Of a stretch of 64,000 nt of DNA, positions 6,057 through 51,080 are shown in pieces. Position numbers and translations under genes: made by a program. Location: positions 2,466 to 66,465 of the forward strand of contig CALKWM010000038.1 of the NCBI GenBank assembly GCA_938004065.1, read 5' to 3'. Origin of the DNA: an uncultured bacterium (lineage in GTDB: Bacteria > Patescibacteriota > JAHJAL01). Numbering within the stretch: the stretch's first letter is position 1; the number at the start of each line of letters is the position of its first letter. The notes beneath the pieces were generated by a model. It did no database searches, was not told the origin of the DNA, and was given only the letters and a program-made list of their open reading frames with translations.

Positions 6057-6180
6057 GAATAGTGCTATATAAAATTAAAATATGGTATGGATCCCCAATC
6101 CGCCCGAGGCGGACAAGTTATCGAATCGCCCGCCGATCCGCATCGAGGATGACAAATAAGAAAATTAGATAGCACTATTC
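6057..6180. mobile_element. ~120-bp MITE with ~25-bp terminal inverted repeats (GAATAGTGCTAT...AATAAGAAAATTAGATAGCACTATTC) enclosing a palindromic core GGATCCCC...GAGGATGACA
   Basis: Seen in sequence. Homologous copies at 14706-14823 (both TIRs) and 46201-46300 (one TIR). Core also contains the CCGCCCGAGGCGGAC palindrome. Confidence 0.7.
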
Positions 6181-6888: not shown

Positions 6889-6894
6889 ATAGAA

Positions 6895-6970
6895 GGGATA
6901 GGTTTTAAACCTGTCCCTACCCTGTGAATTTATAAAACCGGCAGTGGTCTTGATAGACTGCCGGTTTTTT
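6895..6970 (+). terminator. REP-like palindrome GGGATAGGTTTTAAACCTGTCCCTACC followed by a hairpin terminator (aaaccggcagt..actgccggttttttt)
   Basis: Perfect palindromes directly after the hpf stop. The first belongs to the repeat family also at 26818, 42166 and 43118. Confidence 0.6.
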
Positions 6971-7459: not shown

Positions 7460-7683
7460 TAATTTTTTAACCTCCGTTTTGAAATTTTTTTCATTGAAGA
7501 TTTTTTGTGGGCTTTTTTTGCCCCATCACCTCCTAGATTATTAATTTGCAAACGAGATTTTTAAAAAAGCGGCAAAGATGAACAAGAAAGTTCAACCGAA
7601 GATGCAATCTCTGCCGCCAGGATTTTTATAGTGGTCGTTTTTAGACTATTTTATTGTAATAAATATTTGAATTATTGGCAAGA

Positions 7684-10524
7684 CTATTTTCTGGATAGTA
7701 TTTTCGCCAGGTATTGTCCGGTATATGATCGCTTTACCTTGGCTACTTCTTCCGGTGTACCGGTGGCCACAATTTCGCCACCCTCATCACCACCTTCCGG
7801 GCCCAGATCAATGATGTAGTCAGCCACTTTGATCATATCTAAATTATGTTCGATCATGAGAATAGAGTTACCACGACGAACAAGTTTGTTTAAGATTTTG
7901 ATCAAATTTTCGACATCGGCAAAATGCAAACCGATAGTTGGTTCATCCAAGATATAAAGTGTTTTACCGGTGGCACGACGAGCCAGTTCGGTAGATAATT
8001 TGATCCTTTGCGCCTCGCCACCGGAGAGAGTGTTGGCCGGCTGACCAAGTTGCAGATATCCCAACCCCACATCAACCAGAATTTTGAGTTTTTTCTCAAG
8101 GGCAGGAATGTTTTTGAAAAAAATATGCGCTTCTTCGGCGGTCATTTCCAGCACTTCGGAGATATTTTTTCCCTTGTAGTAAATATCCAGGGCTTCCGGA
8201 TTGTAACGGTGCCCGCCACATTCCGGGCAGGTGATATATACATCGGGCAAAAAATGCATTTCAATTTTGATACTGCCGTCCCCTTTACAGTGTTCGCATC
8301 GTCCGCCTTTGACGTTGAACGAAAACCGGCCGGCTTTGTAACCGCGCATTTTGGCCTCGGGGGTAGAAGCAAATAAATCTCGAATCAAGGTAAATGAGCC
8401 GGTATAGGTAGCCGGGTTGGAGCGGGGAGTGCGTCCAATCGGGCTTTGGTCGATGGTGATCACTTTGTCCAAATTTTCCAGGCCTTTGATTTCCCGGTGC
8501 TCACCGGCGGGTTGTTTGGAACGATGAAATTCACGAGCCAACTGTTTGGCCAGTATTTTATGAATCAGAGTAGATTTTCCCGATCCGGAGACGCCGGTTA
8601 CGCAAACAAATTGTCCGAGAGGAATTTTGACGTTGACGTTTTTCAGGTTATGTTCGTTGGCCCCGACAATTTCCAAATATTTGTCCGTAACCTTGCGACG
8701 GCCGGTAGGCACTTCAATCTTTTTTTTGCCGGATAGATACTGTCCGGTGAGAGAGTTTTTGTTTTTCATGACTTCTTTGGGAGTACCTTGCGCCATCAAT
8801 TCACCACCATGCTTGCCGGCGCCGGGCCCGATGTCAATCAAATGATCGGCGGCCAACATGGTTTCTTCGTCATGTTCAACAACGATAATCGAGTTGCCAA
8901 TATCGCGTAATTCTTTGAGCGACTCGATCAATTTACTATTGTCGCGTTGGTGCAAACCGATCGATGGTTCGTCGAGGATATACATGACTCCGGTTAGCAT
9001 CGAACCGATTTGGGTGGCCAGGCGAATACGTTGAGCTTCACCGCCGGACAGAGTATTGGCCGAGCGATGCAAAGTTAGATATCCCAGACCAACATTTTCC
9101 AAAAATCCCAATCTCTCGCCGATTTCTTTGATGATCGGGTTCGATATTTTGCTGTTTTCACGCGAAAATTTCAAGCCGGCAAAAAATTTGATTAGTTCAC
9201 GAACATTCATTTCAGTTACTTCGATGATATTTCTATCATCGATCGTAACCGCCAAAGATTCTATCCGTAAACGTTTACCACCACATTCCGGGCAGGTTTG
9301 TTCAATCATGTATTTTTCGATATCGCTACGCACGTATTCACTGCCTGTTTCCCGATACATTCTCATCAGTTGCGGAATGACGCCTTCGAAAGTTGTTTCG
9401 TATTCCTTGACTTTACCGTATGGTGAGGGATTGGTGACCAAATATGTTTTGCTACCGGTTCCGTGTAAAACAATTTGGATGTGTTCCGGTTTCATATCGG
9501 CAATCGGTGTATCGATATCAAATTTGTTGGCTTCGGCAACCGCCATCAGTATCCGCATATGCCAATTCTGGCGACCGGAAGTTTTGCTCCACGGACCGAT
9601 ACCGCCTTCGGCAATAGTCAATTTCGGGTTGGGAAAAATCATATTTTCATCAATTTCCTGTCTAATACCCAAACCGCTACAACCACTGCAGGCGCCTTGA
9701 GGATTGTTGAAAGAAAAAATGCGGGGGTTGATCTCGGGCAGGTTGATTCCGCACTCGGCACAGGCAAATTGTTCACTAAAGGCATCAATTTTTCCGGTAT
9801 CGGGTTGCAAGACATGAATTAAACCATTGCCATAATTGAGAGCCGTTTCCAATGATTCAACCAGACGGGAACGAAAATCAATGTCTTTTTTGTCGATTTG
9901 CAAACGGTCAACCACAATTTCGATCGTGTGCTTTTTTTGTTTATCGAGAACGATAGATTCCGATAAGTCGCGAATCTCGCCATTGACTCGCACCCGCACA
10001 AATCCGGCTTTTTTGATTTCAGCGAAAGTATTTTTGTGCTCGCCTTTTTGGGCGATAACCAAAGGTGACAGAATGATTATTTTAGTTTTGTTTTGAATGC
10101 TTTCAATCTGATCGGCGATTTGACCGACGGTTTGTGAAGAAATCGGTTTGTGACATTTGGGACAATGCGGGATACCCACCCGGGCAAACAAAAGACGCAA
10201 ATAATCATATATTTCCGTCACGGTTCCCACGGTGGAGCGAGGATTGGAACTGGCTGATTTTTGATCGATAGAAATAGCCGGCGATAATCCTTCAATTTTA
10301 TCCATATCCGGTTTTTCCATAATGCCTAAAAATTGCCTGGCATATGCGGATAGAGACTCGACGTATCGACGTTGACCTTCGGCGTAAATAGTATCAAAAG
10401 CCAATGAAGATTTGCCCGATCCGGAGATACCGGTAATCACAACCAATTCATTTTTGGGAATTACCAAATCGATATTTTTGAGATTGTGTTCTCTGGCTCC
10501 CTTGATAGTAATTTTGTCAATCAT
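7684..10524 (-). CDS. uvrA: excinuclease ABC subunit A
   Basis: 946 aa with two ABC ATPase modules ([23 protein letters not shown]), zinc-finger Cys clusters and LSGGEAQR signature motifs. Confidence 0.97.
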
Positions 10525-10819: not shown

Positions 10820-11566
10820 ATGCCTCATAATAAACAAATTTTTATTATAATAGAATTAATGATGAAAAAAGTGCACAAAAAATACAAACGTAAATATCGA
10901 CAAAAGGGTAGCTGGTTAAACTATTTGGTCTGGTCGTTGATCGGACTGGCGCTGTTACCGGTTTTATTGGCTGTTTTGGTGGCAACGTTTATGCTCGTTA
11001 GGCAGATTCCTTTTTTATCAACCACGATTTGGTATATAGTGTTAGGATTGGTGCTTTACACTTTTTTTCATACTTTTGTATATCAACCGGTGGGATTGTA
11101 TGTAATGGCACATGAATTTACTCATGCGGCGTTTGCTTTGTTGTTTGGCTATAGAGTAAAGAAAATCAAAATCTCAACCGGTGGCGGATATGTGGAGATG
11201 TCGGAATCAAATTTTGTGATTGACTTGGCGCCATATTTTTTTCCACTTTATACCGTGATATTAACCGCCGCTTTCTACGGACTGGACAGGTTGTTTGATT
11301 GGAGTAATTTTTACTGGTTGTTTTTTATTTTCGTCGGAATATTTCTCTCTTTTCATTTTCTATCAAACTGGGACGTTCTAAAAATTGGACAGCCCGATCT
11401 AAATTCGACGGGGAAAATTTTCGCGGTAATTTTTGTGATAATTTCCAATTTGTTGGTGATAAATGTTTTGATGGTGATTTTTTTCATTGATTATATAAAT
11501 TTAAATACAATTTTTGATAATTTTTATCATGCCGGTAGATTTGTTTACGGCTTGTTAGAAAGTTGA
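10820..11566 (+). CDS. polytopic membrane protein with HExxH motif (putative membrane zinc metalloprotease-like)
   Basis: MAHEFTHAAF motif inside a multi-TM protein. Family uncertain. Confidence 0.4.
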   Translation: MPHNKQIFIIIELMMKKVHKKYKRKYRQKGSWLNYLVWSLIGLALLPVLLAVLVATFMLVRQIPFLSTTIWYIVLGLVLYTFFHTFVYQPVGLYVMAHEFTHAAFALLFGYRVKKIKISTGGGYVEMSESNFVIDLAPYFFPLYTVILTAAFYGLDRLFDWSNFYWLFFIFVGIFLSFHFLSNWDVLKIGQPDLNSTGKIFAVIFVIISNLLVINVLMVIFFIDYINLNTIFDNFYHAGRFVYGLLES

Positions 11567-11671
11567 AAAATAGAATGTTTTTTGGTAAGTTTAGCTTACA
11601 AATGTCCTTGTTAAAATGTATTTAAAATGAGGATTTTTGCATTTTAAAAAGAAGGAGGAGCAATATATAAA

Positions 11672-12145
11672 GTGGCAAATCTATTTGAGGGACGGGCTTT
11701 GAGTTACAAGAAATCTTGTAAAGCAAAAAGACCTGGAGAAAAACAGGTGGTAAATTTATTTATCACCGAATTCGGAAAGATGAAAAAACTGACCGCAGTG
11801 GATTTAAATTTGATAGAGTATTTGTACGGCACCTACGAAAAGCGTGGGGCAGAAATCTATCTGCGGGAAGTGGTGACTGCTGATTCGGTATCCAGGATAT
11901 CTATCGGGCGAATGTATTTGATCGTCGAGCTAGTCAAAAAATATGATTTAGCTGAGGTTTTTGAGTTATTGTTAGATAAATTAAAAACCTTTATCGCCCG
12001 CAAAATTTGCACTTATAGTAAAAAGATAAAAGGAATTTTTATGGTACTAAAGAAAACTGAACTTGATATCAAAAAATTTATTGATAATATCGAGTTTAGA
12101 TTTTCTGATCATTCGCAGTTGGCCTACAGGTTAGCTGCAATATAA
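11672..12145 (+). CDS. hypothetical protein
   Basis: 157-aa ORF with no recognisable motif. Confidence 0.3.
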   Translation: MANLFEGRALSYKKSCKAKRPGEKQVVNLFITEFGKMKKLTAVDLNLIEYLYGTYEKRGAEIYLREVVTADSVSRISIGRMYLIVELVKKYDLAEVFELLLDKLKTFIARKICTYSKKIKGIFMVLKKTELDIKKFIDNIEFRFSDHSQLAYRLAAI

Positions 12146-12165
12146 AAAAGAAGAAAGGAAAAAAC

Positions 12166-12369
12166 ATGAAAAAGGGGGACGAGTTTGAACGAAGATCTAA
12201 TTTATTAAAAGAAATTGAAAAGATAAAGCCGGAGTATGCTGAAAAGTTTCTTGATCCAGCCAATGAAAGTCCTTTACATTTATTTTGTAAATGTGAGGCA
12301 ATGGACAGATTGGAAAAACTGGCAGATCGCTATAATTATTGTTTGAAAAAAAGCGATTTGCCCAATTAA
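12166..12369 (+). CDS. hypothetical small protein
   Basis: 67-aa ORF followed by a strong terminator at 12404-12433. Confidence 0.3.
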   Translation: MKKGDEFERRSNLLKEIEKIKPEYAEKFLDPANESPLHLFCKCEAMDRLEKLADRYNYCLKKSDLPN

Positions 12370-12403
12370 AAATATATTTAAGAAGACAGTATCTAATAAA
12401 ATA

Positions 12404-12433
12404 CTGTCTTTTGCCTTTTATGATACAAGGTGG
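12404..12433 (+). terminator. rho-independent terminator (gacagtatctaataaaatactgtctttt)
   Basis: 8-bp perfect stem plus T-run downstream of the 12166-12369 ORF. Confidence 0.7.
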
Positions 12434-15443: not shown

Positions 15444-17393
15444 TTGTTTATAATAAGGGTTATGAATAAAAATAAAGCAAAAACTTTTTGCATCATCACT
15501 TTCGGGTGTGCCATGAATTATAGCGACTCGGACCGAATCGAGGCAGTATTGAAGGAAAACGGTTTGGTTCCGACCAAAAAAGATATTGAGGCCGATTTAG
15601 TGATTATCAATAGTTGCAGTGTCCGGCAAATGGCGGAGGATAGAACATATGGCAAAATCAGTAAATTGGCCAAGTTGAAAAAAAGACCCAAAATAATAGC
15701 CACCGGTTGCTTGGTGTCGGACAAGATTTGGAAAAAATTGTTGGACAAAAACAAATTTGATTTGTGTTTGCCGATTGACCGGATGATTGAACTGCCGAAA
15801 TATCTGGCGGAATGGGGACTGAATTGTCATCCCGAACACGAAAGCGAGTCATCGAGCGTTTCGAGCGATTCGGGATCCCAGAAGAAAATTACCAATTACC
15901 AATTACCAATTACCAATAAAATTCCAAATTCCAAATTCCAAATTCCAAACGAAACATATCTGTCGTCCTCGAGTCGAATGAGTGAAGCGAATATCGACAT
16001 CGGGGATCCAGAAAATAAATCTAAAGTATCAAGTAATAAGTATCAAGGATCAAGTTTGGTGTCCCTCGAACCCGAAGGGTCCACATTGGGACAACTCGGG
16101 ACGATAAATAATGAGATCCTGAATGGCTCGAATAGCCCTGCGGGCTTTCGGGTTCAGGATGACACCAAAAAATACAAGCATTATCTCGACATTGTGCCGA
16201 AGGGGAAACAGACTTTTACGGCGTATATCCCAATCATGACCGGGTGCAATAATTTTTGTTCATATTGTGCGGTGCCATACACTAGAGGCCGCGAAGTTTC
16301 GCGGCCGATGGCGGATGTAATCAACGAAGCCAAGATATTGGCGGAAAATGGGTGTATCGACTTAACTTTGTTGGGGCAGAATGTGAACTCATATAAGTGT
16401 CATCCTGAACTCGGAAGCGAGTCATCGAGCGCTTCGAGCGATTCAGGATCCCAGAAGAAAATTACCAATTACCAATTACCAATTACCAATAAAATTCCAA
16501 ATTCCAAATTCCAAATTCCAAACGAAACATATTTGTCATCCTCGAGTCGAATGAGTGAAGCGGATATCGACAACGGGGATCCAGAAAATAAATATCAAAT
16601 CTCGAATAAATCGCATGGATCCCCGATCCTGCATCCGGGCATTCGCCGGACAGGTTCGCTGGACAAGTTAGCGAAGCGCCCGCCTAAACTAGGAGGGGGA
16701 AGTGAATTAAATAACTCTTTTGTGGAATTATTGCGAAGAGTATCGGATATTAAAGAATTAAAAAGAATATTTTTTATTTCCTCGCATCCGAAAGATATGT
16801 CGGAGGAGTTGATTAGTTTGGTGGCTAGTCGTGATAATTTGTGTAATTACATCCATTTGCCGGTACAGGCGGGAGATAATGAAATTTTAAAAAAGATGAA
16901 CCGGCATTACACACGTGAGCAATATCTTGATCTGGTGGCAATGATTAGAAATACTATTCCCAATGTTAGTTTGACGACAGATCTGATCGTTGGCTTTCCG
17001 GGCGAAAGCGAAAAACAATTTGAGCAATCAGTTGATTTATTCCGACGATGTAAATTTGATATGGCTTTTATCGCCGAGTATTCACCGCGACCCAAAACAG
17101 CCGCTGCTAATTTGAAAGATAATGTCCCCAAAGCGGAAAAACATAGACGAAAGAAGTTTTTAAATGACGAGGTGTTAGCAGTATCTGCACTTGAAAATAA
17201 CAAAAAACTGGAAGGCAAAATTATACCGGTTTTAATATCTCGAGCGAATAAAAATGGATTGATTGGGTTGACTGAAGGGTTAAAACAAGTGCATATCAAA
17301 GGGGATAAAAAAATGATCGGGCAGATTTTGCCGATCAAGATTGTTAAAGCAATGAAGTGGGCGCTGGAGGGAAGAGTTATCAATCATCGATAA
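15444..17393 (+). CDS. miaB: tRNA-i6A37 methylthiotransferase MiaB carrying two in-frame blocks of palindromic repeat-element insertions
   Basis: MTTase N-domain (FCIITFGCAMNYSDS), radical-SAM CNNFCSYCAV and a C-terminal TRAM-like region. 649 aa against ~440-450 expected. Extra ~200 aa map to 15825-16165 and 16398-16700 and consist of copies of the hairpin repeats found intergenically. Confidence 0.85.
   Translation: MFIIRVMNKNKAKTFCIITFGCAMNYSDSDRIEAVLKENGLVPTKKDIEADLVIINSCSVRQMAEDRTYGKISKLAKLKKRPKIIATGCLVSDKIWKKLLDKNKFDLCLPIDRMIELPKYLAEWGLNCHPEHESESSSVSSDSGSQKKITNYQLPITNKIPNSKFQIPNETYLSSSSRMSEANIDIGDPENKSKVSSNKYQGSSLVSLEPEGSTLGQLGTINNEILNGSNSPAGFRVQDDTKKYKHYLDIVPKGKQTFTAYIPIMTGCNNFCSYCAVPYTRGREVSRPMADVINEAKILAENGCIDLTLLGQNVNSYKCHPELGSESSSASSDSGSQKKITNYQLPITNKIPNSKFQIPNETYLSSSSRMSEADIDNGDPENKYQISNKSHGSPILHPGIRRTGSLDKLAKRPPKLGGGSELNNSFVELLRRVSDIKELKRIFFISSHPKDMSEELISLVASRDNLCNYIHLPVQAGDNEILKKMNRHYTREQYLDLVAMIRNTIPNVSLTTDLIVGFPGESEKQFEQSVDLFRRCKFDMAFIAEYSPRPKTAAANLKDNVPKAEKHRRKKFLNDEVLAVSALENNKKLEGKIIPVLISRANKNGLIGLTEGLKQVHIKGDKKMIGQILPIKIVKAMKWALEGRVINHR
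15825..16165. repeat. insertion block 1 in miaB: hairpin element TGTCATCCCGAAC..GATTCGGGATCC, heptamer repeats (ATTACCA)x3-(ATTCCAA)x4, element TGTCGTCCTCGAG..GGGGATCCA, element GTGTCCCTCGAACC..CTCGGGACGA, element GAGATCCTGAAT..GGGTTCAGGATGACA
   Basis: Seen in sequence. Same families occur in intergenic DNA (e.g. 21529, 24647, 19336). Confidence 0.8.
16398..16700. repeat. insertion block 2 in miaB: near-duplicate of block 1 (TGTCATCCTGAAC..GATTCAGGATCC, heptamers, TGTCATCCTCGAG..GGGGATCCA, GGATCCCCGATCC..GCGAAGCGCCCGCC)
   Basis: Encodes CHPELGSESSSASSDSGSQKKITNYQLPITNKIPNSKFQIPNETYLSSSSRMSEADIDNGDPENK, almost identical to the block-1 peptide. Confidence 0.8.
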
Positions 17394-26565: not shown

Positions 26566-27519
26566 ATGAAAATAGACATTATTACCCTATTTCCCGAGAT
26601 GTTTGCTGGTGTATTTGAGGCCAGTATTATCGGACGTGCCAGGGAAAAGGGCTTGATAGAGATAAATTTGCATAATCTCAGGGACTGGGCAGTCGATAAA
26701 CACAAAACCGTTGATGACACGCCTTATGGCGGAGGCGCGGGGATGGTGATCAAGGTGGAGGTGATGGACCGATGCCTGACAGACATAATTCAAAAATCAA
26801 AAATCAAAAATCAAAAAGGACAGGTTACAAACCTGTCCCTACAACGGATATTAATGACACCGCAGGGAAGGACATTTGATCAGAAAAAGGCGAGGGAGAT
26901 GGCGAAATTGGACCAAATCGTTTTGATCTGCGGGCATTACGAAGGATTTGATCAAAGAATTCATGAAAATTTGGTGGACGAGGAATTATCGATCGGAGAT
27001 TTTGTCCTGACCGGTGGAGAGATTCCGGCGATGGCGGTAGTAGATGCGGTAGCTCGACTGGTGCCGGGGGTGATCAAAGAAGAGTCACATATGAATGAGA
27101 GTTTTTCGGTGGTACCTGATAACCACCCCGCCACGCCTCATCGGCGGGAGCCCCTCCTTGAAAAGGAGGGGTGTAAAAAGAAGGAGAAAAGTGATGGATC
27201 CCCCCACCACACCGCCACGCCTTCGCTCATAAAAAGGGAGCTTCGGCGAGCTGCTCCTACTCGAACAGGGGGGAACTACCACCACCCCGAATCGGTCTGC
27301 GACCTTTCTACCCTTCCACTGGTCCACCCCAAAAATTGTTTCACAATTTCTGGGGACCCCGGGGCAGGAGGGGAATATAGACAAGATTTGTATCTAGAAT
27401 ATCCGCATTATACAAAACCGGCGGAATACAAAGGGTGGAAAGTGCCGGAGGTGCTAATGTCCGGCAATCACGCCGAGATTGAAAAATGGAGACAAAAAAA
27501 TATCAAAAAGAAGCCATGA
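26566..27519 (+). CDS. trmD: tRNA (guanine37-N1)-methyltransferase TrmD with two in-frame repeat insertions
   Basis: MKIDIITLFPEMF, GGGAGMV, LICGHYEGFDQR, LTGGEIPAMAVVDAV, SGNHAEIEKWR motifs. 317 aa against ~230-250 expected. Insertions at 26790-26850 and ~27115-27375. Confidence 0.85.
   Translation: MKIDIITLFPEMFAGVFEASIIGRAREKGLIEINLHNLRDWAVDKHKTVDDTPYGGGAGMVIKVEVMDRCLTDIIQKSKIKNQKGQVTNLSLQRILMTPQGRTFDQKKAREMAKLDQIVLICGHYEGFDQRIHENLVDEELSIGDFVLTGGEIPAMAVVDAVARLVPGVIKEESHMNESFSVVPDNHPATPHRREPLLEKEGCKKKEKSDGSPHHTATPSLIKRELRRAAPTRTGGNYHHPESVCDLSTLPLVHPKNCFTISGDPGAGGEYRQDLYLEYPHYTKPAEYKGWKVPEVLMSGNHAEIEKWRQKNIKKKP
26790..26850. repeat. in-frame insertion 1 in trmD: (AAAATCA)x3 heptamers + REP palindrome GGACAGGTTACAAACCTGTCCCTAC
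   Basis: Palindrome family also found intergenically at 6895, 42166 and 43118. Confidence 0.7.
27115..27375. repeat. in-frame GC-rich insertion 2 in trmD (CACCCCGCCACGCC..GCCCCTCCTTGAAAAGGAGGGG.. and further GC-rich palindromic units)
   Basis: Strong local GC shift inside a low-GC gene. First unit homologous to the intergenic element at 18003-18062. Sits between conserved ...EESFS and LEYPHYTKP... segments of TrmD. Confidence 0.65.
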
Positions 27520-41397: not shown

Positions 41398-41504
41398 GAG
41401 CAGAATCGCAATATATTTTTTAGATTAATGTACTGGATTTACGATAATTAATGTTCTTTACTCTAACATCATTTCGGGGATGACGAATTATAAAGAGGAT
41501 AATC

Positions 41505-42158
41505 ATGCAACTAATTGAAATCGTAAAACAATCGGATAAAATCCTCGATATCGGGACCGGCCCCGCAGGGTCGCATTTTTATCCATATGCAAAACCGGAG
41601 ACCATTATTGTCGGGATTGATAAATACAACAAACCGGAAGTGGAGCATCCGAATTTTATATATGAAGCGTTGGACGCGATGGATCTGGATAAAGTTGGCA
41701 CAGGATTATTTTCGAAATTCAAACCGGGGTGGATGGAATATTTTGATCTGGTAGTAGCTGATCATGTGATGGAGCATGTCAGTAATCCCGAAAAATTGGT
41801 AACAGGAATTAAAAAAGTATTAAAAAAAGACGGGATTGCACATATCGCGATTCCCGATCCAAATAATTTCACTGAGAAATTTTATCACCTGATTCATCCA
41901 GAGGGTGGTGGACATGTGAGCAAAATTCCAAAAAAAGAACTAATTGCTCTTTTTGAAAAGCATGGTTTTGAGTTGTTGTATTATACTGACATACCTGATG
42001 ATTGGAAGTGGTTGGAATTTTTGTATGATTGGAAACGAAGAGGGATCAAATATTTTGCCAATGAGGATATAAAATCTATCGTGGAGACTTTCCGGAAGGA
42101 ACTAACGGCGGAGAAAGGGTATTTTTATGGCGGTGAGTATTTTTGGCGGAGGAAATGA
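41505..42158 (+). CDS. class I SAM-dependent methyltransferase
   Basis: ILDIGTGPAG motif I, VVADHVMEHV. Confidence 0.6.
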   Translation: MQLIEIVKQSDKILDIGTGPAGSHFYPYAKPETIIVGIDKYNKPEVEHPNFIYEALDAMDLDKVGTGLFSKFKPGWMEYFDLVVADHVMEHVSNPEKLVTGIKKVLKKDGIAHIAIPDPNNFTEKFYHLIHPEGGGHVSKIPKKELIALFEKHGFELLYYTDIPDDWKWLEFLYDWKRRGIKYFANEDIKSIVETFRKELTAEKGYFYGGEYFWRRK

Positions 42159-42290
42159 CAAATTGGTAGGGACAGGTTTGAAACCTGTCCCTACCAAAAG
42201 GACAACCCGAGGGTTGCCCCTACAAATAATCATACGCCACCCTGGTTCACGAAAAACATGTGGATGGTACGGATGATGATGAAATGATTT

Positions 42291-42713
42291 TTATTTTTCT
42301 ATTATGTGCTTTTTGACAAACTTTTCAATCGCTGAAACTGTTTCTTCTTTCATATCAGGTGGACTGCTCGCAATCCAAACGGCGAAATTATAGAACTCAA
42401 CATTGTCGACTTGCAACCATTTGCCATTTTTTTCCAAAAATACCAAGAGTGCAGTGATAGCGATTCGTTTGTTGCCATTTTGAAACGGATGATTTTTTAT
42501 CATTAGATAAAACAATATTGCCGCTTTTCCTGCCAATCCTTTGTATAATGGCTTTTTATCGAATTTTTGAAATGGTACCAGAAGGCAACTTTCAAGAATC
42601 TTGGGGTAACGAGTGAAAAAGTCCGGAATTGGCTCCTGATAATCCATGTACTTCTTGGCGATATAAAAAGCGATTTTTTCTACCTCGGCCAATTTTATGG
42701 ATTTGATTGCCAC
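42291..42713 (-). CDS. doc: Fic/Doc-family toxin (death-on-curing)
   Basis: HPFQNGNKRIAITA matches the Doc variant of the Fic motif H-x-F-x-x-G-N-K-R. Confidence 0.75.
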   Translation of the reverse strand: MAIKSIKLAEVEKIAFYIAKKYMDYQEPIPDFFTRYPKILESCLLVPFQKFDKKPLYKGLAGKAAILFYLMIKNHPFQNGNKRIAITALLVFLEKNGKWLQVDNVEFYNFAVWIASSPPDMKEETVSAIEKFVKKHIIEK

Positions 42714-42716
42714 TTT

Positions 42717-42974
42717 TTATTCCTCCCCCAATAATTCGAGTGTGTGCCCATAATCCTTGATTACCCGATCTACTACTCTTTTAATATTTTTTTCTCTCTG
42801 CTTGGAGACTTCAAAGCCAAAAATATCCGTCAAATCCGTTGTGTCTATCACATAGTTGCGACCAACTTTTTGCGCTTTTATTTCTCCCGATTTGATTTTC
42901 TTGAAAACCGCAACATGGGAGATCCCCAATAATTGAGCTAAATCGTTGGTAGAGATTAAATTTTGTTTTTTCAT
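42717..42974 (-). CDS. putative antitoxin with excisionase/MerR-type HTH DNA-binding domain
   Basis: LISTNDLAQLLGISHVAVFKKIKSGEI HTH. 3-nt spacing to doc. Confidence 0.5.
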   Translation of the reverse strand: MKKQNLISTNDLAQLLGISHVAVFKKIKSGEIKAQKVGRNYVIDTTDLTDIFGFEVSKQREKNIKRVVDRVIKDYGHTLELLGEE

Positions 42975-43301
42975 ATCTTAACTTATGTTTTATAATTAAT
43001 ATATATTAACTTACTATATATAGGTTAACATATTATTAATTTTATTTCAATAGGATAATTTAAGAGAAAAATAAAGGAGGGAGATGATATATTTGTAGGG
43101 GCAATTCCCGCCCAAGGCGGACAGGAGCAACCTGTCCCTACGGGAAATCACACCTCACCACGGTTTACAAAAAACATTCTGACAGTGCGGGGGATGATAA
43201 TTTGATACAAAGTGATCGAATATATTTATTGACCTGAAATTTATATTTGTTTCTTTAAGATAAATAATTATAGAGATAAGATATTTATAAATCTGTCCAA
43301 C

Positions 43302-43737
43302 ATGAAGCCGCTAAATATTGTAATTTTTGAAGTAACAGATTGAGTCGGAAAAACAACTGCTTTCAATAATCTGACAAACTACAGTTTTTATTACATCGAT
43401 CGTTTCACCGGATCGGGGTTTGTTTACGACTCTATTTATGGTCGAGCAGATAATCGTAGTCGGATTATTAATTTTAAAAAAGAATTTTTTAAAAATTAAT
43501 AATGCCATTGTATTTATGGTCTATTTACATTGTGCCCGGAAAGAACAAATTAAACGGATACGACAGTATGACGAAAAATATTTGGACCGAATAGAAAAAT
43601 TGGATTTATCTTTGGAAGGATATCGAGAGTATTTAACATTAACACCTAATAAAATAATTATTGATACTACCAGTTCCTCTCCTAAAAATACAGTCAAAGA
43701 AATTTTGGAACAAATAAATAGGTATTTAAAAAGATAA
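43302..43737 (+). pseudogene. thymidylate/deoxynucleoside-kinase-like P-loop kinase disrupted by an in-frame TGA and a frameshift
   Basis: Reading from 43302 gives MKPLNIVIFEVTD*VGKTT...YYIDRFTGSGFVYDSIYG (P-loop and DRY..S..AY motif). The downstream ORF 43420-43737 continues a kinase-like C-terminus in another frame. Confidence 0.4.
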
Positions 43738-43743
43738 TAGTAT

Positions 43744-44187
43744 CTAGCTTTTTTTTACCGCCATTTTTATTTGTGCTCTGGTACCAGTAGGAGAATCAAT
43801 GCCAATCGTATCCAATGCGTCAATTTCCTCGATGTCAAACCAACCATAATCCATAAGTTCCGGAGATAATTTCACTTTAGTTTTGTTGTTATCAATATCT
43901 ACCAAAAAAATTAAGCCCAGGCGATAGATGTCGTTAGAGTCTTTTTGCCAACTGTAACTATGCAAATATTTTACAGGTGTGTCAGATGTAATTTTTATGC
44001 CTACTTCTTCATAAATTTCTCGAATTAAAGTTTGTTCCACCGATTCGCCAATTTCCATTTTCCCTCCCAGATTTTGCCATTTCCCGGGAAAAATATCGTC
44101 GTTTATATTTCTTCTAACTAGAAGATATTTGTGAGCGCTATTTTTTATAACGGCAATTACGGATACAATTTGTAATAAATTGGTCAT
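43744..44187 (-). CDS. Nudix hydrolase
   Basis: Nudix box GGKMEIGESVEQTLIREIYEEVGI. Confidence 0.8.
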   Translation of the reverse strand: MTNLLQIVSVIAVIKNSAHKYLLVRRNINDDIFPGKWQNLGGKMEIGESVEQTLIREIYEEVGIKITSDTPVKYLHSYSWQKDSNDIYRLGLIFLVDIDNNKTKVKLSPELMDYGWFDIEEIDALDTIGIDSPTGTRAQIKMAVKKS

Positions 44188-44270
44188 GGTTTTTTGATAA
44201 TAATTTTACGGATCTATCTCCCCGCCCTTTGGGCAATTCAGAATGTTCAGTTATTCAAACCACCTTCATT

Positions 44271-44640
44271 TCTCAGGATGACAGAGATCCTGAATCGCTC
44301 GAGCGCTCGTATAACTCGCCTCGGGTTCAGGATGACATTGTAATTTGTTTGGAATTTGATTAGACAAGGATGGGTGGAACAACGTAGAACTCCTTCCATT
44401 TCTTAAGATGACAGAGATCCTGAATCGCTCGAGTGCTAGTATAACTCGCCTCGGGTTCAGGATGACATTGTGATTTGTTTGGAATTTGATTAGACAAGGA
44501 TGGGTGGAACAACGTAGAACTCCTTCCATTTCTTAAGATGACAGAGATCCTGAATCGCTCGAGTGCTCGTATAACTCGCCTCGGGTTCAGGATGACATTG
44601 TGATTTGTTTTCCGCCCAAGGCGGACCAGTCATAAACTGG
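44271..44640. repeat. tandem array, ~2.8 copies of a 130-bp unit (hairpin element GAGATCCTGAATCGCTCGAG..GGGTTCAGGATGACA + 73-bp spacer)
   Basis: Unit starts at 44284, 44414 and 44544. Spacers are identical between units. Confidence 0.8.
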
Positions 44641-44672
44641 GGAAATTGGAAATTGATACTTGGAAATTGTCC

Positions 44673-46040
44673 TCAAACCCCTCCCCTATTTACAAAAAAC
44701 ATTCTGACAGTGCGGAGGATAATGATGAAATCCAGGAAAAGTGATCGGTTTTTGAGGTAATAGAGATCGTACTGGAGTTTTTCGTCGGCGTCGGAAAAGG
44801 ACGCGCTGTAGTTCATATTGATTTGCGCCCAACCGGTTAATCCCGGTTTGATGAGATGTCTTTTGTAATATAATTTTTGTCGTTGTTCCAGTTTGCCAGT
44901 AAATTCCGGCCGTTCGGGACGGGGACCGACGAGACTCATGTCCCCTATCAAAATATTCCAAAATTGCGGGAGCTCATCGAGACAAGATTTGCGCAGGAAT
45001 CGGCCGATGTTGGTAACTCGGTTGTCGTGGGTGGTAGCCCATTTGGCTTTTTTGGTTTCGGCATTTACCGTCATGGTGCGAATTTTGTAGAGATTGAATA
45101 CTTGATTATTGATGCCCATCCGAGATTGCGAGTAGAAAAACGGACCGCGAGAGTCGATTTTGACCAGAATGTATAATAGTGGAAATAAAATAACAAAAAT
45201 AATTAATCCGATCAAACCGGCCACGATATCGATCAATCTCTTGAAATAGATATTGATTTTATGCGGAGAGTGGTTGATATTGGCAAAAATTATCTGGCTG
45301 ATATGCTCCAAGGGGATTTTGCCGGTTAGGTGCTCGTACAGGTAAGAGATGTCAATCAGTTGAGCGTGGTTGGTCAAGCAGTAATCGGTAATTATCGCCA
45401 ATTCATCATGATGGTTGGACAATTTGTTGATGTCCAGAACGATAACATCGATTTGCCGGCGAGCGAGAATTTTTTTGATGTCACCGAGGTGACCGATAGT
45501 TTTTAATTGATTGTTGCGAATAGATTGATTGGTAACTATCATACCGTTTAATTGATAGCCAAAAGAGGGATTGGAATTGATCAGGCGAGATAAATTGGAT
45601 TCAAATTTCTGATTGCCGATAATAATGATTTTTTTTAACAGTGGGCGGGAGATGAAGATTTTGTTGAAAATTATCCGCCAGACAAAAAGGGAAAAGCCGG
45701 TAACTAAAAGCAGGATAATCAAAATAGTTTTGGGGGTAATGTTGAAGGCGGGAAAACTGTAAAAAAAGATAATTGATATGATAAAGTTAATTATAGATGA
45801 GCGAAGAGTGGCATAGGTTAAAAATTGTATATTGGAAAACTGAAAATAGTCGTAAAGTTGGTTGATATAGTACACAATCAGCCAGAGGACAAAAACCGGA
45901 ATAAAGACATACAAATGCTCGCGATAGTTGTAAAAAATATCGTTTAATATTTGGTATCGGATAAAAACACTTAGCCAGAGGGCGAGGATCAAAATACACA
46001 GGTCGCCCGAAAATAATGTAAGACGTTTAACGAGATTCAT
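44673..46040 (-). CDS. polyprenyl-phosphate hexose-1-phosphate transferase (WbaP/WcaJ-like bacterial sugar transferase)
   Basis: N-terminal TM bundle and C-terminal catalytic domain with DELPQFWNILIGDMSLVGPRPERPEF and a terminal ...RTVRMFFVNRGGV. Confidence 0.85.
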   Translation of the reverse strand: MNLVKRLTLFSGDLCILILALWLSVFIRYQILNDIFYNYREHLYVFIPVFVLWLIVYYINQLYDYFQFSNIQFLTYATLRSSIINFIISIIFFYSFPAFNITPKTILIILLLVTGFSLFVWRIIFNKIFISRPLLKKIIIIGNQKFESNLSRLINSNPSFGYQLNGMIVTNQSIRNNQLKTIGHLGDIKKILARRQIDVIVLDINKLSNHHDELAIITDYCLTNHAQLIDISYLYEHLTGKIPLEHISQIIFANINHSPHKINIYFKRLIDIVAGLIGLIIFVILFPLLYILVKIDSRGPFFYSQSRMGINNQVFNLYKIRTMTVNAETKKAKWATTHDNRVTNIGRFLRKSCLDELPQFWNILIGDMSLVGPRPERPEFTGKLEQRQKLYYKRHLIKPGLTGWAQINMNYSASFSDADEKLQYDLYYLKNRSLFLDFIIILRTVRMFFVNRGGV

Positions 46041-46200
46041 TGAGGAGAAATTACAAATTACAAATTACTAATTACGAGATAAAAAACTTTTCCCAGCCCA
46101 AGGCTGGTCCGCCCAGGGCGGAAAACTTGTTCAAACATTTTTAAACTTTCCAAAATTTATGAAGTAGAAAGTGAAAAGTTGGAAAGTGAAAATTTTTTCT

Positions 46201-46300
46201 GGATCCCCAATCCAGCATTCGCCGGACAAGTTGTCTAATCGCTCGTCCCTCGCTTTCGACTCGAGGATGACAGATAAGAAAATTAATTAGCACTACTCAT
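46201..46300. mobile_element. MITE copy (core GGATCCCCAATCC..CGAGGATGACA + right TIR GATAAGAAAATTAATTAGCACTACTCAT; left TIR absent)
   Basis: Homologous to 6057-6180 and 14706-14823. Confidence 0.6.
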
Positions 46301-46389
46301 TAATTTAAGTTTGCTAAGTTTGAAAATTGGTATGCTTGATAAGTTTATAATTGATTCTAATCTAATTTAACCATAACTAATAATAAAAA

Positions 46390-48591
46390 GTGAAATTAAA
46401 TAAAAATTATCCCACGTATTATTATCTCGATGTGGCAATGCAGTTTTTCCTGATTTTGGCATTGACGCTGGTACCAATTTACTTTACGACCATGATCCAC
46501 AACTCTTTTACAATCGAGAAACATGTTATTTTCCGCGTCTGTGTACTGCTCATGTTTGCAATCGGCGTGATCAAATATTCATATTTTAGTGCTCGAAAGT
46601 TACCCAAGGTTTTCTGGTTGATGCCTTTGTTTGGTTTGGTGGGAGTACTTTCGACAATTTTTTCGATCAATCCGGCGGTCAGTTTGTGGGGTATTCATCT
46701 GCGGATGGACGGATTGGTAAATATGTTGTTTCTGGTGATGTTTTTTGTGTTGGCATATCTGCAGTTGGATACCAAAACCAAGATAAAACAAGTGATATTG
46801 GCCATCGTGTTGGGTTCGATAATACCGGTTGTCTATGCCATCATGCAAAAAATTGGCGCCGATCCGCTGGAATGGAAAGGGGTAAATGCGGAGGAAAGGG
46901 TGTTTGGCACTACCGGTAACCCGGCTTATCTCGGCGCCTATTTGTTGTTTACCATTCCTCTAACTTGCTATCTGGGAATAAAATACAATTCTCTCAAAAA
47001 ATATTTTTTTTATGTACTTGGTTTGGCTTCAATCTATGTTTTGATCCTGACCTGGACGAGAGCGGCTTATCTGGCTTTGGGATTGGAAATATCAATTTTG
47101 GCTATGGCGTATTTTTGGATGAGCCATAAAAAACGGCTGTTTTATGTTTTTTCGGGACTGATATTGGCGGGAATACTATTTGTCGGGGCGTTAAATGTAA
47201 ATCCCGGCTTGGTAAACACTTTGGGGAACAATCGCTATCTGGAAAGATTGTCGCAACTTACGCAAACTACCGAGGGGACGGGAAAAGACAGGTTGGAAAT
47301 GTGGAAAATTTCGGTTAAAGCGATCGAAGAAAGACCGTTACTGGGTGCCGGTTTGAGTCAGTATATCCAGTATTTCAATAAATACTATCCAAATTACATG
47401 GACGCTCGCCCGGACAAAGACCGTTACAGCAATTATTCTCACAATCTCTGGCTAGATACGGGAGTGGCACATGGATTGGCCGGGATTTTGGTTCTGCTTT
47501 CCATTTATGCCTCTTTTATCTGGTTGGGTCTTAAAAAAATGCGCGCTCAGGAAACTCTGGAGGAAAAATTTTTGTATCTTTCGGTTATAGTAGCGATTTT
47601 GGGCTATCTCACTCAGGCAATGTTCAATATCGAAACAATTATTACCTGGGAATATAGTTTTGGACTGTTGGCAGTATTGCTGGCGATGGTAAATTTAAAC
47701 GAAGAGCAAGAACTGCATTCTAAATCCCCTACCGTCTGGAAACAAATTTTGACGACGGTGCTAGTGGTGGCGGGATTGGTTGGTGTTTATTTTCTCGCAA
47801 TCAATCCTTGGTCGGCGGATAAAAATTATTTCTATGTCAATAGTGCAAATCTGCCGATTGATCAAAAATTGGCACTGGCTCAGGAGGCGGAAATATTTAC
47901 CCCCTATTTTGAATATGCTCCAATCAGGATTGGTGATATCTATGCTTCGCAAATTGATTTAAGCAAAACCCAAGAAGCCACAGATTTATTTACTAATTCG
48001 GTTGAACAAGTGAACAAAGCCCTCGCTATTAACCCGCTTAATTACAAAAACTATATGTCGCTGGCGACCATCTACGGATCGTGGGCAAGGATAGACAATA
48101 CCAAATTGGTACAAGCCGAAGAGCATTTCAAAAAAGCTAAAACGATGAGTCCGAACCGACTGGATTTACATTGGACATGGGGCAATGTTTATCTGGATTT
48201 AAATATGGTGGACAAAGCCCATGAGCAATACGAAGAAGCCCGGAAATTGAATCCGGAAATTGGAGAAACATATTTCAATTTGGCAAAAGTGGCGATTTTG
48301 CAAGGCGAGCAACAACAGGCCGATGAATTTTTGCAAACAGCTTTGGATAAAGGATATGTTTATGAAGAGTTAAAATTTTACCAGGATATGGCACTGATGG
48401 TTTACAAGCAAAGTAATTTTTTACTGGCCGGTTCGTTGGCCGGGCGGGCCAATGAAATATCCGTGTCTGAAATGTCGGCCATGATCGAAATCCAAGCTAA
48501 TTTGGAATTGGATCAAAGCGATGTGGCCGGTTCCTTGTTGAATGAGTATAGCAAACTTGTCCCGGGGTTGGAGGAGAAGTTTCAACAATAA
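46390..48591 (+). CDS. O-antigen ligase/polymerase-like (Wzy_C) membrane protein fused to C-terminal TPR repeats
   Basis: ~12 TM N-terminal region containing LTWTRAAYLALGLE (Wzy_C-like). C-terminal ~250 aa with TPR-like helices (ATIYGSWARIDN..AEEHFKKAKTMSPN..). Confidence 0.65.
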   Translation: MKLNKNYPTYYYLDVAMQFFLILALTLVPIYFTTMIHNSFTIEKHVIFRVCVLLMFAIGVIKYSYFSARKLPKVFWLMPLFGLVGVLSTIFSINPAVSLWGIHLRMDGLVNMLFLVMFFVLAYLQLDTKTKIKQVILAIVLGSIIPVVYAIMQKIGADPLEWKGVNAEERVFGTTGNPAYLGAYLLFTIPLTCYLGIKYNSLKKYFFYVLGLASIYVLILTWTRAAYLALGLEISILAMAYFWMSHKKRLFYVFSGLILAGILFVGALNVNPGLVNTLGNNRYLERLSQLTQTTEGTGKDRLEMWKISVKAIEERPLLGAGLSQYIQYFNKYYPNYMDARPDKDRYSNYSHNLWLDTGVAHGLAGILVLLSIYASFIWLGLKKMRAQETLEEKFLYLSVIVAILGYLTQAMFNIETIITWEYSFGLLAVLLAMVNLNEEQELHSKSPTVWKQILTTVLVVAGLVGVYFLAINPWSADKNYFYVNSANLPIDQKLALAQEAEIFTPYFEYAPIRIGDIYASQIDLSKTQEATDLFTNSVEQVNKALAINPLNYKNYMSLATIYGSWARIDNTKLVQAEEHFKKAKTMSPNRLDLHWTWGNVYLDLNMVDKAHEQYEEARKLNPEIGETYFNLAKVAILQGEQQQADEFLQTALDKGYVYEELKFYQDMALMVYKQSNFLLAGSLAGRANEISVSEMSAMIEIQANLELDQSDVAGSLLNEYSKLVPGLEEKFQQ

Positions 48592-48863: not shown

Positions 48864-51080
48864 ATGAAAAAGTTTTTTGGGTGGGTGGTGGTTTTTGTAC
48901 TTTTAGCGTCGTTATTCATAAATATTCAAGGTGTAAAAGCAGCGACGACTATATTGCATGAGTTTTCAGGAGGAGGGAGTGATGGAGCTAATCCACGCAC
49001 TGGTCTTACTCACTACGACGGTAAACTTTATGGAACAACGTTTAATGGAGGGGATTCAAATGAAGGAACAGTTTTTAGAGTTGATATAGATGGCTCAAAC
49101 TTCACTTTGTTGCATGAATTTGCGGGAGGAGGGAGTGATGGAGCAAAACCTTTTAGTGCTTTGCTAATAGAATCTGGCGTGATTTATGGAACAACCACCA
49201 AAGGAGGTGATAATAATATTGGAACAATATTCTCAATGAATACTAATGGAACAGGATTCACTTTATTGCATGAATTTGCAGGTGGTGCAAATGATGGCCA
49301 AAGTCCACTTGGCTCTTTAATTCTAGATACTGGTGTTCTTTATGGAACAACAGATCGAGGTGGAGACTACAATTATGGAACCATATATTCCATCCAAACA
49401 GATGGAAATAATTTTTCTTTGTTGCATGAGTTCGCGGGATCTCCAAACGAAGGAAGTTACCCTAAGGGCAATTTACTTTATAGTGAAGGAAAGCTATACG
49501 GAACTACAAACAGTGGAGGAAATGCGACAGGATATGGGTATGGATATGGCACAATATTCTCTATCGATACAGATGGAACTAATCACGTACTTTTACACGA
49601 ATTTGGTGGAGGAAATAATGATGGTGCTTATCCATACGGAGGATTAGTTATCGACTCAGGCACGCTTTATGGCTTAACTAATAGTGGAGGCGACAGTGGC
49701 TATGGAACTATTTTTTCGATAGATACCAATGGAACAAATTTTACTCTGTTGCATGAGTTTGCTGGGGGCAATGATGACGGTAATAGTCCTAAAGATTCAT
49801 TATTGTTAAGTAATGGAACATTGTTTGGAACAACATTTTATGGAGGTGAATTTGGAGCTGGTTTTGGCTATGGTACTATTTTCTCAATTGATACTAATGG
49901 TTTGAATTTTGGTTTACTACATGAGTTTGAATCAGGTACAGATGATGGTAGCTGGCCAGAAGGAAATCTAATTCTGGTTTCTAATAATTTTTACTCAACC
50001 ACAAATGCTGGTGGTGACAGCAATTTAGGTACAATTTTTAGTACAGATCTGCCTATATCTTCAGGTCCTACATCAATCAAAAACACGCTAAGCAGTTCCG
50101 CTCCCGGGGAATTGGTGAATATGACTATCGAATACACTCCAGCACTAACAACTGCTGTGACTGATGGATCGGTTAAATTAACCCTCGCTGAAGAATTTGA
50201 TTTTAACGGAATATCAAAAGACGACGTATCTGCCAGTGGTGGAGATGTTACTTGGGATCCTAATGAGATAATAACAGTCGATGGGACAATAATCACAAGA
50301 AATAATAGCTGGGTAGACAGAGTTTACGCGCAGGGAGAAGATAGTATTGTGTTTGGATTTACGGGAGATTTGGACAATACTGGCGGGACAATTACATTTA
50401 CCATCAATGGAGCGACCGCTCCGTTGAATCCCGGTTCAATTGGTTCATATGATTTCAATGTGGGAGTTTTTTCGACCAGCGACGGTACCGGTGCGGCTTT
50501 GGAAGTAAGAGATGGGAGAGTGGCGATTGCCAGTCAAGTAAATGTTACCGCCACCGTTCCATCTACCCTAACTCTAACAATTAATGGAGTGGCAAGTGGA
50601 AACGCGTGTAGTAATAGTGGTAGCAATGCATCAGTTACAACAACATCTTCTACTATTCCATTTGGAATATATACCGGAGCACAAACCAAGATAGCTTGTC
50701 AGACATTAACAGTAAGTACCAATGCTACCAATGGATATATCGTAACTGTCGAACAAGATCAAGATCTAACCAGTGCCGGATCAGATACAATGAAAGCTTT
50801 TTCCGGTACTTATGCCACTCCAACAACTTGGGCAACACCTCCGGGGAGTGGAACGGAATCATTTTTTGGATTTACGACTGATGATACCGGCTACTCCAGT
50901 TTTCAAACAGCTAAATACGCGGGATTTGCGGTGGATAATACTCCATATGCCATCATGACCGGACCGGAACCGGTGGTTGATGAAGAGAATGTAATTTCCT
51001 ATCAATTGGAAGTTACTAACTTGCAAGAAGCGGGTGTTTATAGTAATACTGTAATGTATATTGCGACGGCGATGTTTTAG
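48864..51080 (+). CDS. secreted repeat protein: signal peptide, 8 tandem ~45-aa beta-propeller-like repeats (LLHEFxGGxxDGxxPxxxL....LYGTTxxGG....GTIFSI) resembling choice-of-anchor GloVer-type repeats, plus ~330-aa C-terminal module shared with the 57651-62075 protein
   Basis: Signal peptide MKKFFGWVVVFVLLASLFINIQGVKA. LHEF occurs 8 times at regular spacing. C-terminal module ends ...VMYIATAMF. Confidence 0.7.
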   Translation: MKKFFGWVVVFVLLASLFINIQGVKAATTILHEFSGGGSDGANPRTGLTHYDGKLYGTTFNGGDSNEGTVFRVDIDGSNFTLLHEFAGGGSDGAKPFSALLIESGVIYGTTTKGGDNNIGTIFSMNTNGTGFTLLHEFAGGANDGQSPLGSLILDTGVLYGTTDRGGDYNYGTIYSIQTDGNNFSLLHEFAGSPNEGSYPKGNLLYSEGKLYGTTNSGGNATGYGYGYGTIFSIDTDGTNHVLLHEFGGGNNDGAYPYGGLVIDSGTLYGLTNSGGDSGYGTIFSIDTNGTNFTLLHEFAGGNDDGNSPKDSLLLSNGTLFGTTFYGGEFGAGFGYGTIFSIDTNGLNFGLLHEFESGTDDGSWPEGNLILVSNNFYSTTNAGGDSNLGTIFSTDLPISSGPTSIKNTLSSSAPGELVNMTIEYTPALTTAVTDGSVKLTLAEEFDFNGISKDDVSASGGDVTWDPNEIITVDGTIITRNNSWVDRVYAQGEDSIVFGFTGDLDNTGGTITFTINGATAPLNPGSIGSYDFNVGVFSTSDGTGAALEVRDGRVAIASQVNVTATVPSTLTLTINGVASGNACSNSGSNASVTTTSSTIPFGIYTGAQTKIACQTLTVSTNATNGYIVTVEQDQDLTSAGSDTMKAFSGTYATPTTWATPPGSGTESFFGFTTDDTGYSSFQTAKYAGFAVDNTPYAIMTGPEPVVDEENVISYQLEVTNLQEAGVYSNTVMYIATAMF

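Follow-up and report, generated by a model that had tools for sequence, protein, structure and literature searches.

The window considered here is a stretch of 64,000 nucleotides (nt) of contig CALKWM010000038.1 (assembly GCA_938004065.1), from an uncultured bacterium of the Patescibacteria. It includes a glycan gene cluster with glycosyltransferase, Wzm/Wzt, Wzy_C-like and methyltransferase genes, in which a sugar-transferase gene and a methyltransferase gene converge on a region of 2.5 kilobases (kb) that is an insertion relative to syntenic relatives. The last codons of the transferase gene stand there three times, once as the live end (copy A) and twice as displaced copies (B and C), and the copies delimit two small islets of cargo genes. 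An earlier note, made from the letters alone, had read this arrangement as serial site-specific integration at the 3' end of the gene. The features of the locus, from the methyltransferase gene to the transferase gene, are the following.

41505 to 42158, plus strand: convergent methyltransferase gene of 217 amino acids (aa; Pfam Methyltransf_23), the far border of the insertion site.
42163 to 42229, no strand assigned: hairpins behind copy C, GTAGGGGCAACCCTCGGGTTGTCC followed by the perfect palindrome TTGGTAGGGACAGGTTT/AAACCTGTCCCTACCAA.
42230 to 42285, minus strand: copy C, a displaced 3' end reading FIIIRTIHMFFVNQGGV and a stop codon, one codon (Leu) being absent; it starts 6 nt past the Doc stop codon.
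42291 to 42713, minus strand: Doc (Fic/DOC family) toxin gene, 140 aa (Pfam Fic, 38.2 bits; TIGR01550, 54.3 against a cut-off of 38.65).
42717 to 43074, minus strand: putative antitoxin gene of the HTH_17 (helix-turn-helix, excisionase-type) fold at 42717-42974, with its leader at 42972-43039 (Pfam HTH_17, 30 bits against 27).
43075 to 43147, no strand assigned: hairpin cluster behind copy B, with GTAGGGACAGG..CCTGTCC, CCGCCCAAGGCGG and GAATTGCCCCTACAAATATAT.
43148 to 43222, minus strand: copy B, a displaced 3' end of about 75 nt, in which a 4-nt indel breaks the frame upstream of IIIPRTVRMFFVNRGEV and its stop codon.
43302 to 43737, plus strand: thymidylate-kinase (TMK)-like pseudogene, with one in-frame TGA and one frameshift.
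43744 to 44187, minus strand: Nudix hydrolase gene, 147 aa (Pfam NUDIX, 72.3 bits), the cargo of the gene-proximal islet.
44263 to 44626, no strand assigned: 130-nt tandem array of 2.7 copies (44263-44610; Tandem Repeats Finder (TRF) score 654, 96% matches), with hairpin CCGCCCAAGGCGG (44609-44626).
44673 to 44747, minus strand: copy A, the live 3' end (attL-like), defined by local alignment and carrying the 27-nt block CCGCACTGTCAGAATGTTTTTTGTAAA in common with copy B.
44673 to 46040, minus strand: polyprenyl glycosylphosphotransferase gene (WbaP/EPS_sugtrans-like, 455 aa; Pfam Bac_transf, 220.8 bits), the target gene.

The target protein gives a full-length match to TIGR03025 (368 bits against a cut-off of 295.55) and scores 215 against 403 with the WbaP subfamily model, below its cut-off, so that 'WbaP-like' is only a loose name for it. 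Its translated 3' end is ...DFIIILRTVRMFFVNRGGV followed by the stop codon, and the C-terminal pattern ..IIILRTxRMxFVxRGGV is conserved among 15 homologues. An identical sugar-transferase protein is encoded on a 326-kb contig of a Patescibacteria metagenome-assembled genome (GCA_036848155.1).

A repeat search of the window finds the three gene ends as a direct repeat family with three members of 54 nt, at 42230, 43148 and 44673. Local alignment of A with B spans about 75 nt, with 58 of 71 aligned nt matching, one 4-nt indel and one identical run of 27 nt; the A/C and B/C alignments cover about 57 nt each, and B and C are 69% identical. The copies are thus related at the nucleotide level. The 27-mer of A and B occurs exactly twice in the window, with none expected, and so long an identical run is improbable given the overall identity of the two copies (P = 0.013). 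In a six-frame peptide scan of the window B scores 60 and C 58, against 20 for the next-best site and 28 for the best of 20 shuffles, and no fourth copy of the gene end was found. Both remnants are in direct orientation and in register, both keep the stop codon, and both cover no more than the final 54-75 of the gene's 1368 nt. These results support the reading of B and C as displaced earlier ends from the same gene family, as the note had it. The end peptide it gave for B, IIIPRTVRMFFVNRGEV, is correct; that for C, given as IILRTIHMFFVNQGGV, instead reads FIIIRTIHMFFVNQGGV owing to the absent Leu codon.

The differences between the copies fall mostly at synonymous positions. Synonymous and non-synonymous codon changes number 6 and 2 between A and B, 9 and 3 between A and C, and 7 and 2 between C and the gene end of a relative at 88% identity (S88, which combines loci L003 and L086 of one sample). 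At the penultimate Arg codon, A and two close relatives have AGR, B has CGT, like a 60% outgroup (CGN), and C has CAG (Gln). The last 16 nt of A and the following GGACAA resemble the live ends in the relatives L003 and L004, the latter at 83% identity. Because the differences are mostly synonymous, each copy was once a working, translated end in some lineage or element, and the three are alternative, once-functional gene ends, not decay products of one duplicated sequence. The copies described in the note as decayed are real, though not simple products of decay. The 27-nt block is present in A, in B and in the variant junction described next, and absent from S88 and L004; it may be an attP/attB identity core or a conversion tract.

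The variant junction is found in two short contigs of about 600 nt (L091 and L092) of a variant strain, from two European Nucleotide Archive (ENA) assemblies, whose Doc protein is 98% identical to that of the window and whose HTH-Doc region is about 95-97% identical in nt. Past the Doc stop codon these contigs read TAATCC-TTCATCATCATC-CG/CACTGTCAGAATGTTTTTTGTAAACCGTGGTGAGGTGTGA, where the slash marks the boundary between two parts, and then enter the hairpin cluster of B. The left part is that of copy C, including its unusual missing codon; from CAC on, the sequence is that of copy B at 42 of 42 nt, and the hairpin flank matches at 96 of 101 nt. The two parts meet in register at CCG, which is all that B and C share at the exchange point. 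In the window the order is right part of B, hairpins, HTH, Doc, left part of C; in L091 it is Doc, left part of C, right part of B, hairpins. The L091 order thus appears to be a circular permutation of the window islet, the arrangement expected of a tandem junction or of an attP site in a circular DNA. The longest identical run between B and C, read from their alignment, is about 8 nt at most, and the junction is therefore neither a RecA product nor a k-mer assembly chimera.

Downstream copies of gene ends were also sought with each gene's own last 78 nt at 80 distant loci and at L001 and L003-L005, the distant loci having been drawn from a metagenome scan with the 15-homologue alignment, in which the matches listed are all at no more than 41% identity. 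Background scores reach 29 at most, the window scores 63, and one distant locus, L019, scores 67. There (11226-12432) a displaced copy of the gene's final 117 nt lies 1 kb downstream; its first 52 nt are identical (P = 0.0002), the remainder is diverged yet in frame, and an intrinsic terminator follows the remnant. In the islet so enclosed, an ArsR-type HTH gene is accompanied by the hairpin GGACATATTCGTGCGAATATGTCC in five copies. By its sequence, L019 is an independent second case of the same architecture in a distant, unrelated lineage.

Islet-free alleles, for which the note had proposed to look in related genomes, do exist. In the syntenic relative L005 (60% protein identity) the gene is followed by 53 nt of hairpins and then by the convergent 217-aa methyltransferase gene, and in L106 (59%) only 5 nt separate the target gene from the methyltransferase gene; both are empty sites. 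Two relatives at 53% have an ABC-transporter gene at the insertion site instead, with no remnants, and L108 and L109 are likewise without islets. L107 has a Phd/YefM antitoxin gene (7577-7921) directly after the transferase gene, again with no remnants; scans for gene-end remnants were negative in L106-L109 and in L086. Toxin-antitoxin genes are recurrent around the glycan locus in relatives, and an AbiEii/DUF6922 pair lies beside the Wzy_C-like gene of L005 (5563-6114). Genomes of the species in the Genome Taxonomy Database (GTDB), searched with the protein and with a 23-nt core, gave no match, so that the collection appears to include neither this genome nor one closely related to it.

The closest relatives bear on the relative ages of the two islets. 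In S88 the order is gene, hairpin, approximately one repeat unit, Nudix and methyltransferase gene, with 83 nt between the last two stop codons. By blastn, the block specific to the window is 42165-43725 (1561 nt), replaced in S88 by 59 nt; it comprises the TMK pseudogene, B, hairpins, HTH, Doc, C and hairpins. Between S88 and the window the gene is 82.8% identical in nt, Nudix 84.1% and the methyltransferase gene 81.0%. The Nudix gene has diverged as much as the genes that flank it, so that it must have been at the locus for as long as they have; it also adjoins the target gene in L086 and in L004, in the latter directly 3' of it. It is thus, on this comparison, old and vertically inherited at the locus. 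The order implied in the note, with the farthest islet the oldest, is doubtful, since the 88% and 83% relatives also have Nudix and the 88% relative is without TMK, B, HTH-Doc and C. The Doc/HTH islet is probably the younger event, which probably entered the distal remnant, because it is absent from S88 and near-identical variants of it exist. The spacer behind the live gene varies among the three closest relatives.

The cargo of the islets is small. The only open reading frames (ORFs) in them are those of Doc, HTH_17, Nudix and the TMK pseudogene, as profile matches show in agreement with the note; the islet with Nudix and the TMK pseudogene measures about 1.45 kb and that with HTH and Doc about 0.9 kb. 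Doc has 5721 homologues, and those with a named source in the best 120 are all from Patescibacteria/candidate phyla radiation (CPR) or an unclassified bacterium. The HTH ORF ends 3 nt ahead of the Doc start, its leader is AT-rich and partly palindromic, with a repeat, and its protein scores 28.7 bits with TIGR01764, against a cut-off of 28.8. The pair fits a putative type II toxin-antitoxin module of the Doc family; a role of the HTH protein in recombination directionality would be speculation. The TMK pseudogene, once repaired, passes Pfam Thymidylate_kin (29.9 against 27 bits), and its TGA sits exactly at the conserved P-loop Gly codon (FEVTD*VGKTT, the asterisk standing for the TGA). Either a nonsense mutation turned GGA into TGA here, or the TGA may hint at descent from an organism in which it encodes Gly. 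Such recoding was rejected as the simplest reading of the pseudogene, since TGA is the stop codon of the host gene and of both remnants and a frameshift is found as well. When all fetched loci were searched by tblastn for Doc, HTH, Nudix and TMK, no distant relative showed a Doc cassette beside the gene.

Hairpin repeats abut both B and C, as the note had also seen. The motif GTAGGGRCA, for which 0.37 occurrences would be expected in the window, has 7, of which 5 are within 42166-43141, and a perfect palindrome of 17+17 nt lies at 42163-42197, in a region (42163-42229) that has a terminator-like site on the minus strand. The hairpin CCGCCCAAGGCGG is found at 43108 and 44612. The flank of C, GTAGGGGCAACCCTCGGGTTGTCCTTT, matches the hairpin directly 3' of the live gene in L004, and the intergenic hairpins of L004 match C's flank (GTAGGGACAACCCTCGGGTTGTCCTTT) and part of B's flank. 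A perfect 15-nt inverted repeat (TTGCCCCTACAAATA; 42214-42228 and 43090-43104) brackets C, Doc and HTH. It was considered as the ends of a transposon (an insertion sequence or a miniature inverted-repeat transposable element) and rejected: it belongs to the GTAGGGRCAA hairpin family, whose palindrome L003 and L004 keep intact, and there is neither a target-site duplication nor a transposase.

The 130-nt array, whose presence TRF confirms, had been counted to the islet, an assignment that did not hold. The core of its unit, about 54 nt ending in GTTCAGGATGACA, is a dispersed genome repeat, found at 15824, 16398, 21927, 24646 and 26018 as well as in the array copies at 44286, 44416 and 44546, mostly in intergenic leaders upstream of promoters; the 88% relative has approximately one partial unit of the array. 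The array is a local amplification of a dispersed repeat family and not islet cargo. A related motif is seen near 6145, 26455 and 26525. An Rfam search of 41400-46500, array and hairpins included, gave no match.

The reading that we prefer, and to which we give about an even chance of being right, is Campbell-type accretion at the 3' end of a protein gene, catalysed in trans and resembling that of cis-mobilisable elements (CIMEs). We infer a circular intermediate, site-specific catalysis and an order of events as follows. Each mini-island would have arisen by single-crossover integration of a small circular DNA whose attachment site mimics the last ~20-25 codons of the gene. Integration would fuse the gene body to the element-borne end, leaving the gene intact, and would leave the old end, together with its hairpin terminator, beyond the inserted element. 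A would then be the working end, and B and C earlier working ends that are now hybrid, attR-like sites: the right arm of C and its hairpin would be the oldest native end, and the right arm of B and its hairpin cluster part of the Doc element. B and C would be hybrids because the Doc element probably entered the distal remnant of an older islet and not the live end. The recombinase may be encoded elsewhere or long lost, acting in trans as for integrase-less CIMEs.

Several observations fit this scheme. A and B show a diverged arm, the 27-nt identical core and a further diverged arm, as expected of attL and attR. This pattern, in A/B and in L019, together with the shortness of the remnants and the low-homology, in-register junction of L091, favours a site-specific enzyme over illegitimate joining. 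The mostly synonymous differences, which indicate that each end was once translated, are as expected of replacement ends supplied by an element. Of the site-specific integration proposed in the note, what stands is that the hybrid junction and L019 fit a circular form; no recombinase or partner with a matching att site was found.

Other observations weigh against it. Integrase, transposase and relaxase domains are absent from the ORFs of at least 110 aa in the 64-kb window (Pfam), in line with the statement in the note that no integrase remains, and the criterion for tyrosine- or serine-recombinase genomic islands, a recombinase encoded by the element beside its att site, finds no candidate in the window. 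With no recombinase gene in the window, the enzyme must be supplied in trans or belong to the past. In the collections searched, neither islet turned up in free form or on a phage or plasmid. Among the distant loci fetched only 1 of 80 shows a displaced end; the gene end is not a hotspot across the family as a whole. The last 10 nt of L091 (ATGCTTGTCA) depart from the HTH leader expected of a circle or tandem, and L092 stops just before them. The reconstructed target of the Doc element matches the element core poorly and the live end A perfectly, which is odd for a site-specific enzyme. By peptide scan S88 has no gene-end remnant at all, the stretch from Nudix to the methyltransferase gene included. 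Either the Nudix islet may have come in by some other route, or a deletion must be assumed.

Searches for mobile relatives were made along several lines. An ancestry from integrative and conjugative or integrative and mobilisable elements (ICEs or IMEs) would leave traces, and there are no integrase or transfer-gene remnants in the 64 kb and no related element in viral, phage, plasmid and genome collections. The 27-nt core has no match in viral contigs; a search of these with the degenerate codon pattern gave 9 matches, all rejected as short unrelated ORFs, none of them transferase ends. By blastn the 2.5 kb has no match in phage and plasmid records. An integron cassette array was also rejected, since there is no integrase and what is repeated is the 3' end of a coding sequence and not an attC site.

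The alternative that survives best, possible though on balance unlikely, is that B and C remain from alleles that recombination has replaced in the glycan locus, as stubs left where DNA of a diverged strain came in by one homologous anchor and one illegitimate end, or where whole transferase genes were deleted down to their last codons, with neither a circle nor a site-specific enzyme. Polysaccharide clusters are recombination hot spots, often with gene remnants, and this locus lies within one. The ends evidently come from different functional alleles, as the predominance of synonymous differences shows, and the lack of a recombinase in the window and of a remnant beside Nudix in S88 would be explained as well. 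The identical blocks of 27 nt here and 52 nt in L019 are also long enough for a RecA-type crossover, for which the minimum in Escherichia coli is ~23-27 base pairs. Such an origin does not, however, account for the similar shortness of the stubs, both comprising just the final 54-75 nt of a 1368-nt gene, for which the chance of a double occurrence, if junctions were placed uniformly, is ~(80/1400)^2. Illegitimate end-joining also does not predict the exchange in L091/L092, in register between repeats 69% identical, at a shared point of 3 nt and with a circularly permuted order. To the left of the identical core, moreover, B keeps diverged homology with an indel, and not a clean illegitimate junction.

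Improbable by comparison is a local duplication in situ, in which slippage or, for instance, unequal exchange at hairpin repeats copied the gene end and neutral decay then altered the copies, with the cargo inserted independently. Small palindromes and dispersed repeats are abundant in the genome, several of them cluster at this site, and the variable spacer behind the gene in the three closest relatives is in keeping with such turnover. Neutral decay, however, predicts mostly non-synonymous and frame-breaking changes, and those seen are mostly synonymous, with the stops kept; the codons of B (CGT) and C (CAG) at the Arg position differ from the AGR of A, that of B resembling the 60% outgroup, and the sequences lying between the copies are mutually unrelated. 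Chance similarity or an assembly or binning artefact, to which the shortness of the copies and a break in assembly L002 at 290 nt past the gene might point, is hardly credible, being excluded by the shuffle and background controls and by contigs from three other sequencing runs that show the same structure across the locus (L094, 4334/4334 nt identical; L095, 1398/1399; L096, 1340/1341).

Guedon et al., 2017 (PMC5704250), review CIMEs and how elements accrete in tandem where a target gene ends, with islands related to ICESt1/ICESt3 at fda of Streptococcus thermophilus as an example (Pavlovic 2004 and Bellanger 2011, cited there). As would hold for the window on the preferred reading, the element supplies a replacement end, islets are stacked at one site, and a later element may enter the att copy of an earlier one. 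Unlike CIMEs, the window islets bear no trace of ICE/IME ancestry (integrase, relaxase or conjugation remnants), measure only 0.9-1.5 kb, and have a Patescibacteria host and no mobilising partner element identified. Tycheposons of Prochlorococcus are stacked elements separated by partial tRNA copies, with tandem and excised junctions within populations (10.1101/2020.12.28.424599). They would share with the window serial integration at one site in a streamlined genome, with older elements pushed inward and degenerate remnants; they differ in having tRNA-gene targets and a tyrosine recombinase, whereas the window has a protein-coding target, no recombinase and one to two cargo genes.

Genomic islands and prophages integrate in the 3' end of tRNA, transfer-messenger RNA (tmRNA) and protein genes by means of tyrosine integrases. 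Like the window islets, these classical elements have an identical core with diverged arms, direct repeats and a gene kept intact by an element-borne end; the window islets differ in having no integrase, phage or conjugation genes and in being smaller by one to two orders of magnitude. At the junctions of O-antigen and capsule loci there are, as in the window, short 3' stubs of glycan-synthesis genes between functional genes, but these are not usually in-register serial copies and show no circularly permuted junctions. As for the cargo, the Doc-family toxin gene follows a small DNA-binding protein gene at 3 nt, as in Doc/Phd type II modules, and the upstream partner is of the HTH_17 (excisionase-type) fold, in contrast to the Phd/YefM of those modules. 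The stacking of integrase-less islets where a protein gene ends is a known process, of which the window would be an unusually small case, in a glycan cluster of Patescibacteria.

Patescibacteria have tiny genomes, and gene gain in them is little understood. On the reading of Campbell-type accretion, a surface-glycan cluster would take up islets of one or two genes (a toxin-antitoxin pair, a nucleotide-cleansing enzyme) without damage to its essential priming enzyme, each insert bringing its own copy of the gene end, and the displaced ends would be a fossil record of the alleles or elements that have visited the locus. If a trans-acting recombinase is found, the locus would offer a very small, tractable model for island accretion in uncultured bacteria. 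A bolder and rather doubtful extension is that Patescibacteria host minimal recombinase-less cassettes of one to two genes (~1 kb), which would take a circular form in transit, insert in register at the 3' end of the priming glycosyltransferase gene, carry a functional replacement end and hairpins, and rely on an unlinked recombinase in trans. The HTH protein of the Doc cassette could serve both as antitoxin and as directionality factor, and the cassettes would be analogous to integrons and unrelated to them.

Some repeats elsewhere in the window lie within genes. The MiaB-like radical-SAM gene (649 aa; 15444-17393) has two in-frame inserts of ~72 aa, at 15822-16036 and 16395-16609, and its protein is some 200 aa longer than is usual for MiaB, by our estimate. 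The inserts are copies of a 215-nt repeat, 92.6% identical, with heptamer tandem repeats and the ~54-nt dispersed repeat inside, and such translated repeats within an essential gene are reminiscent of Rickettsia palindromic elements. The TrmD-like gene (26566-27519) has an in-frame insert at 26790-26842 made up of (TCAAAAA)x4 and the hairpin GGACAGGTTACAAACCTGTCCCTAC, which is of the same family as the hairpins at 42163-42197 and 6894-6921. An ORF of 738 aa at 48864-51080, without a Pfam match, has internal diverged periodic repeats with ~156-nt spacing and ~66% identity.

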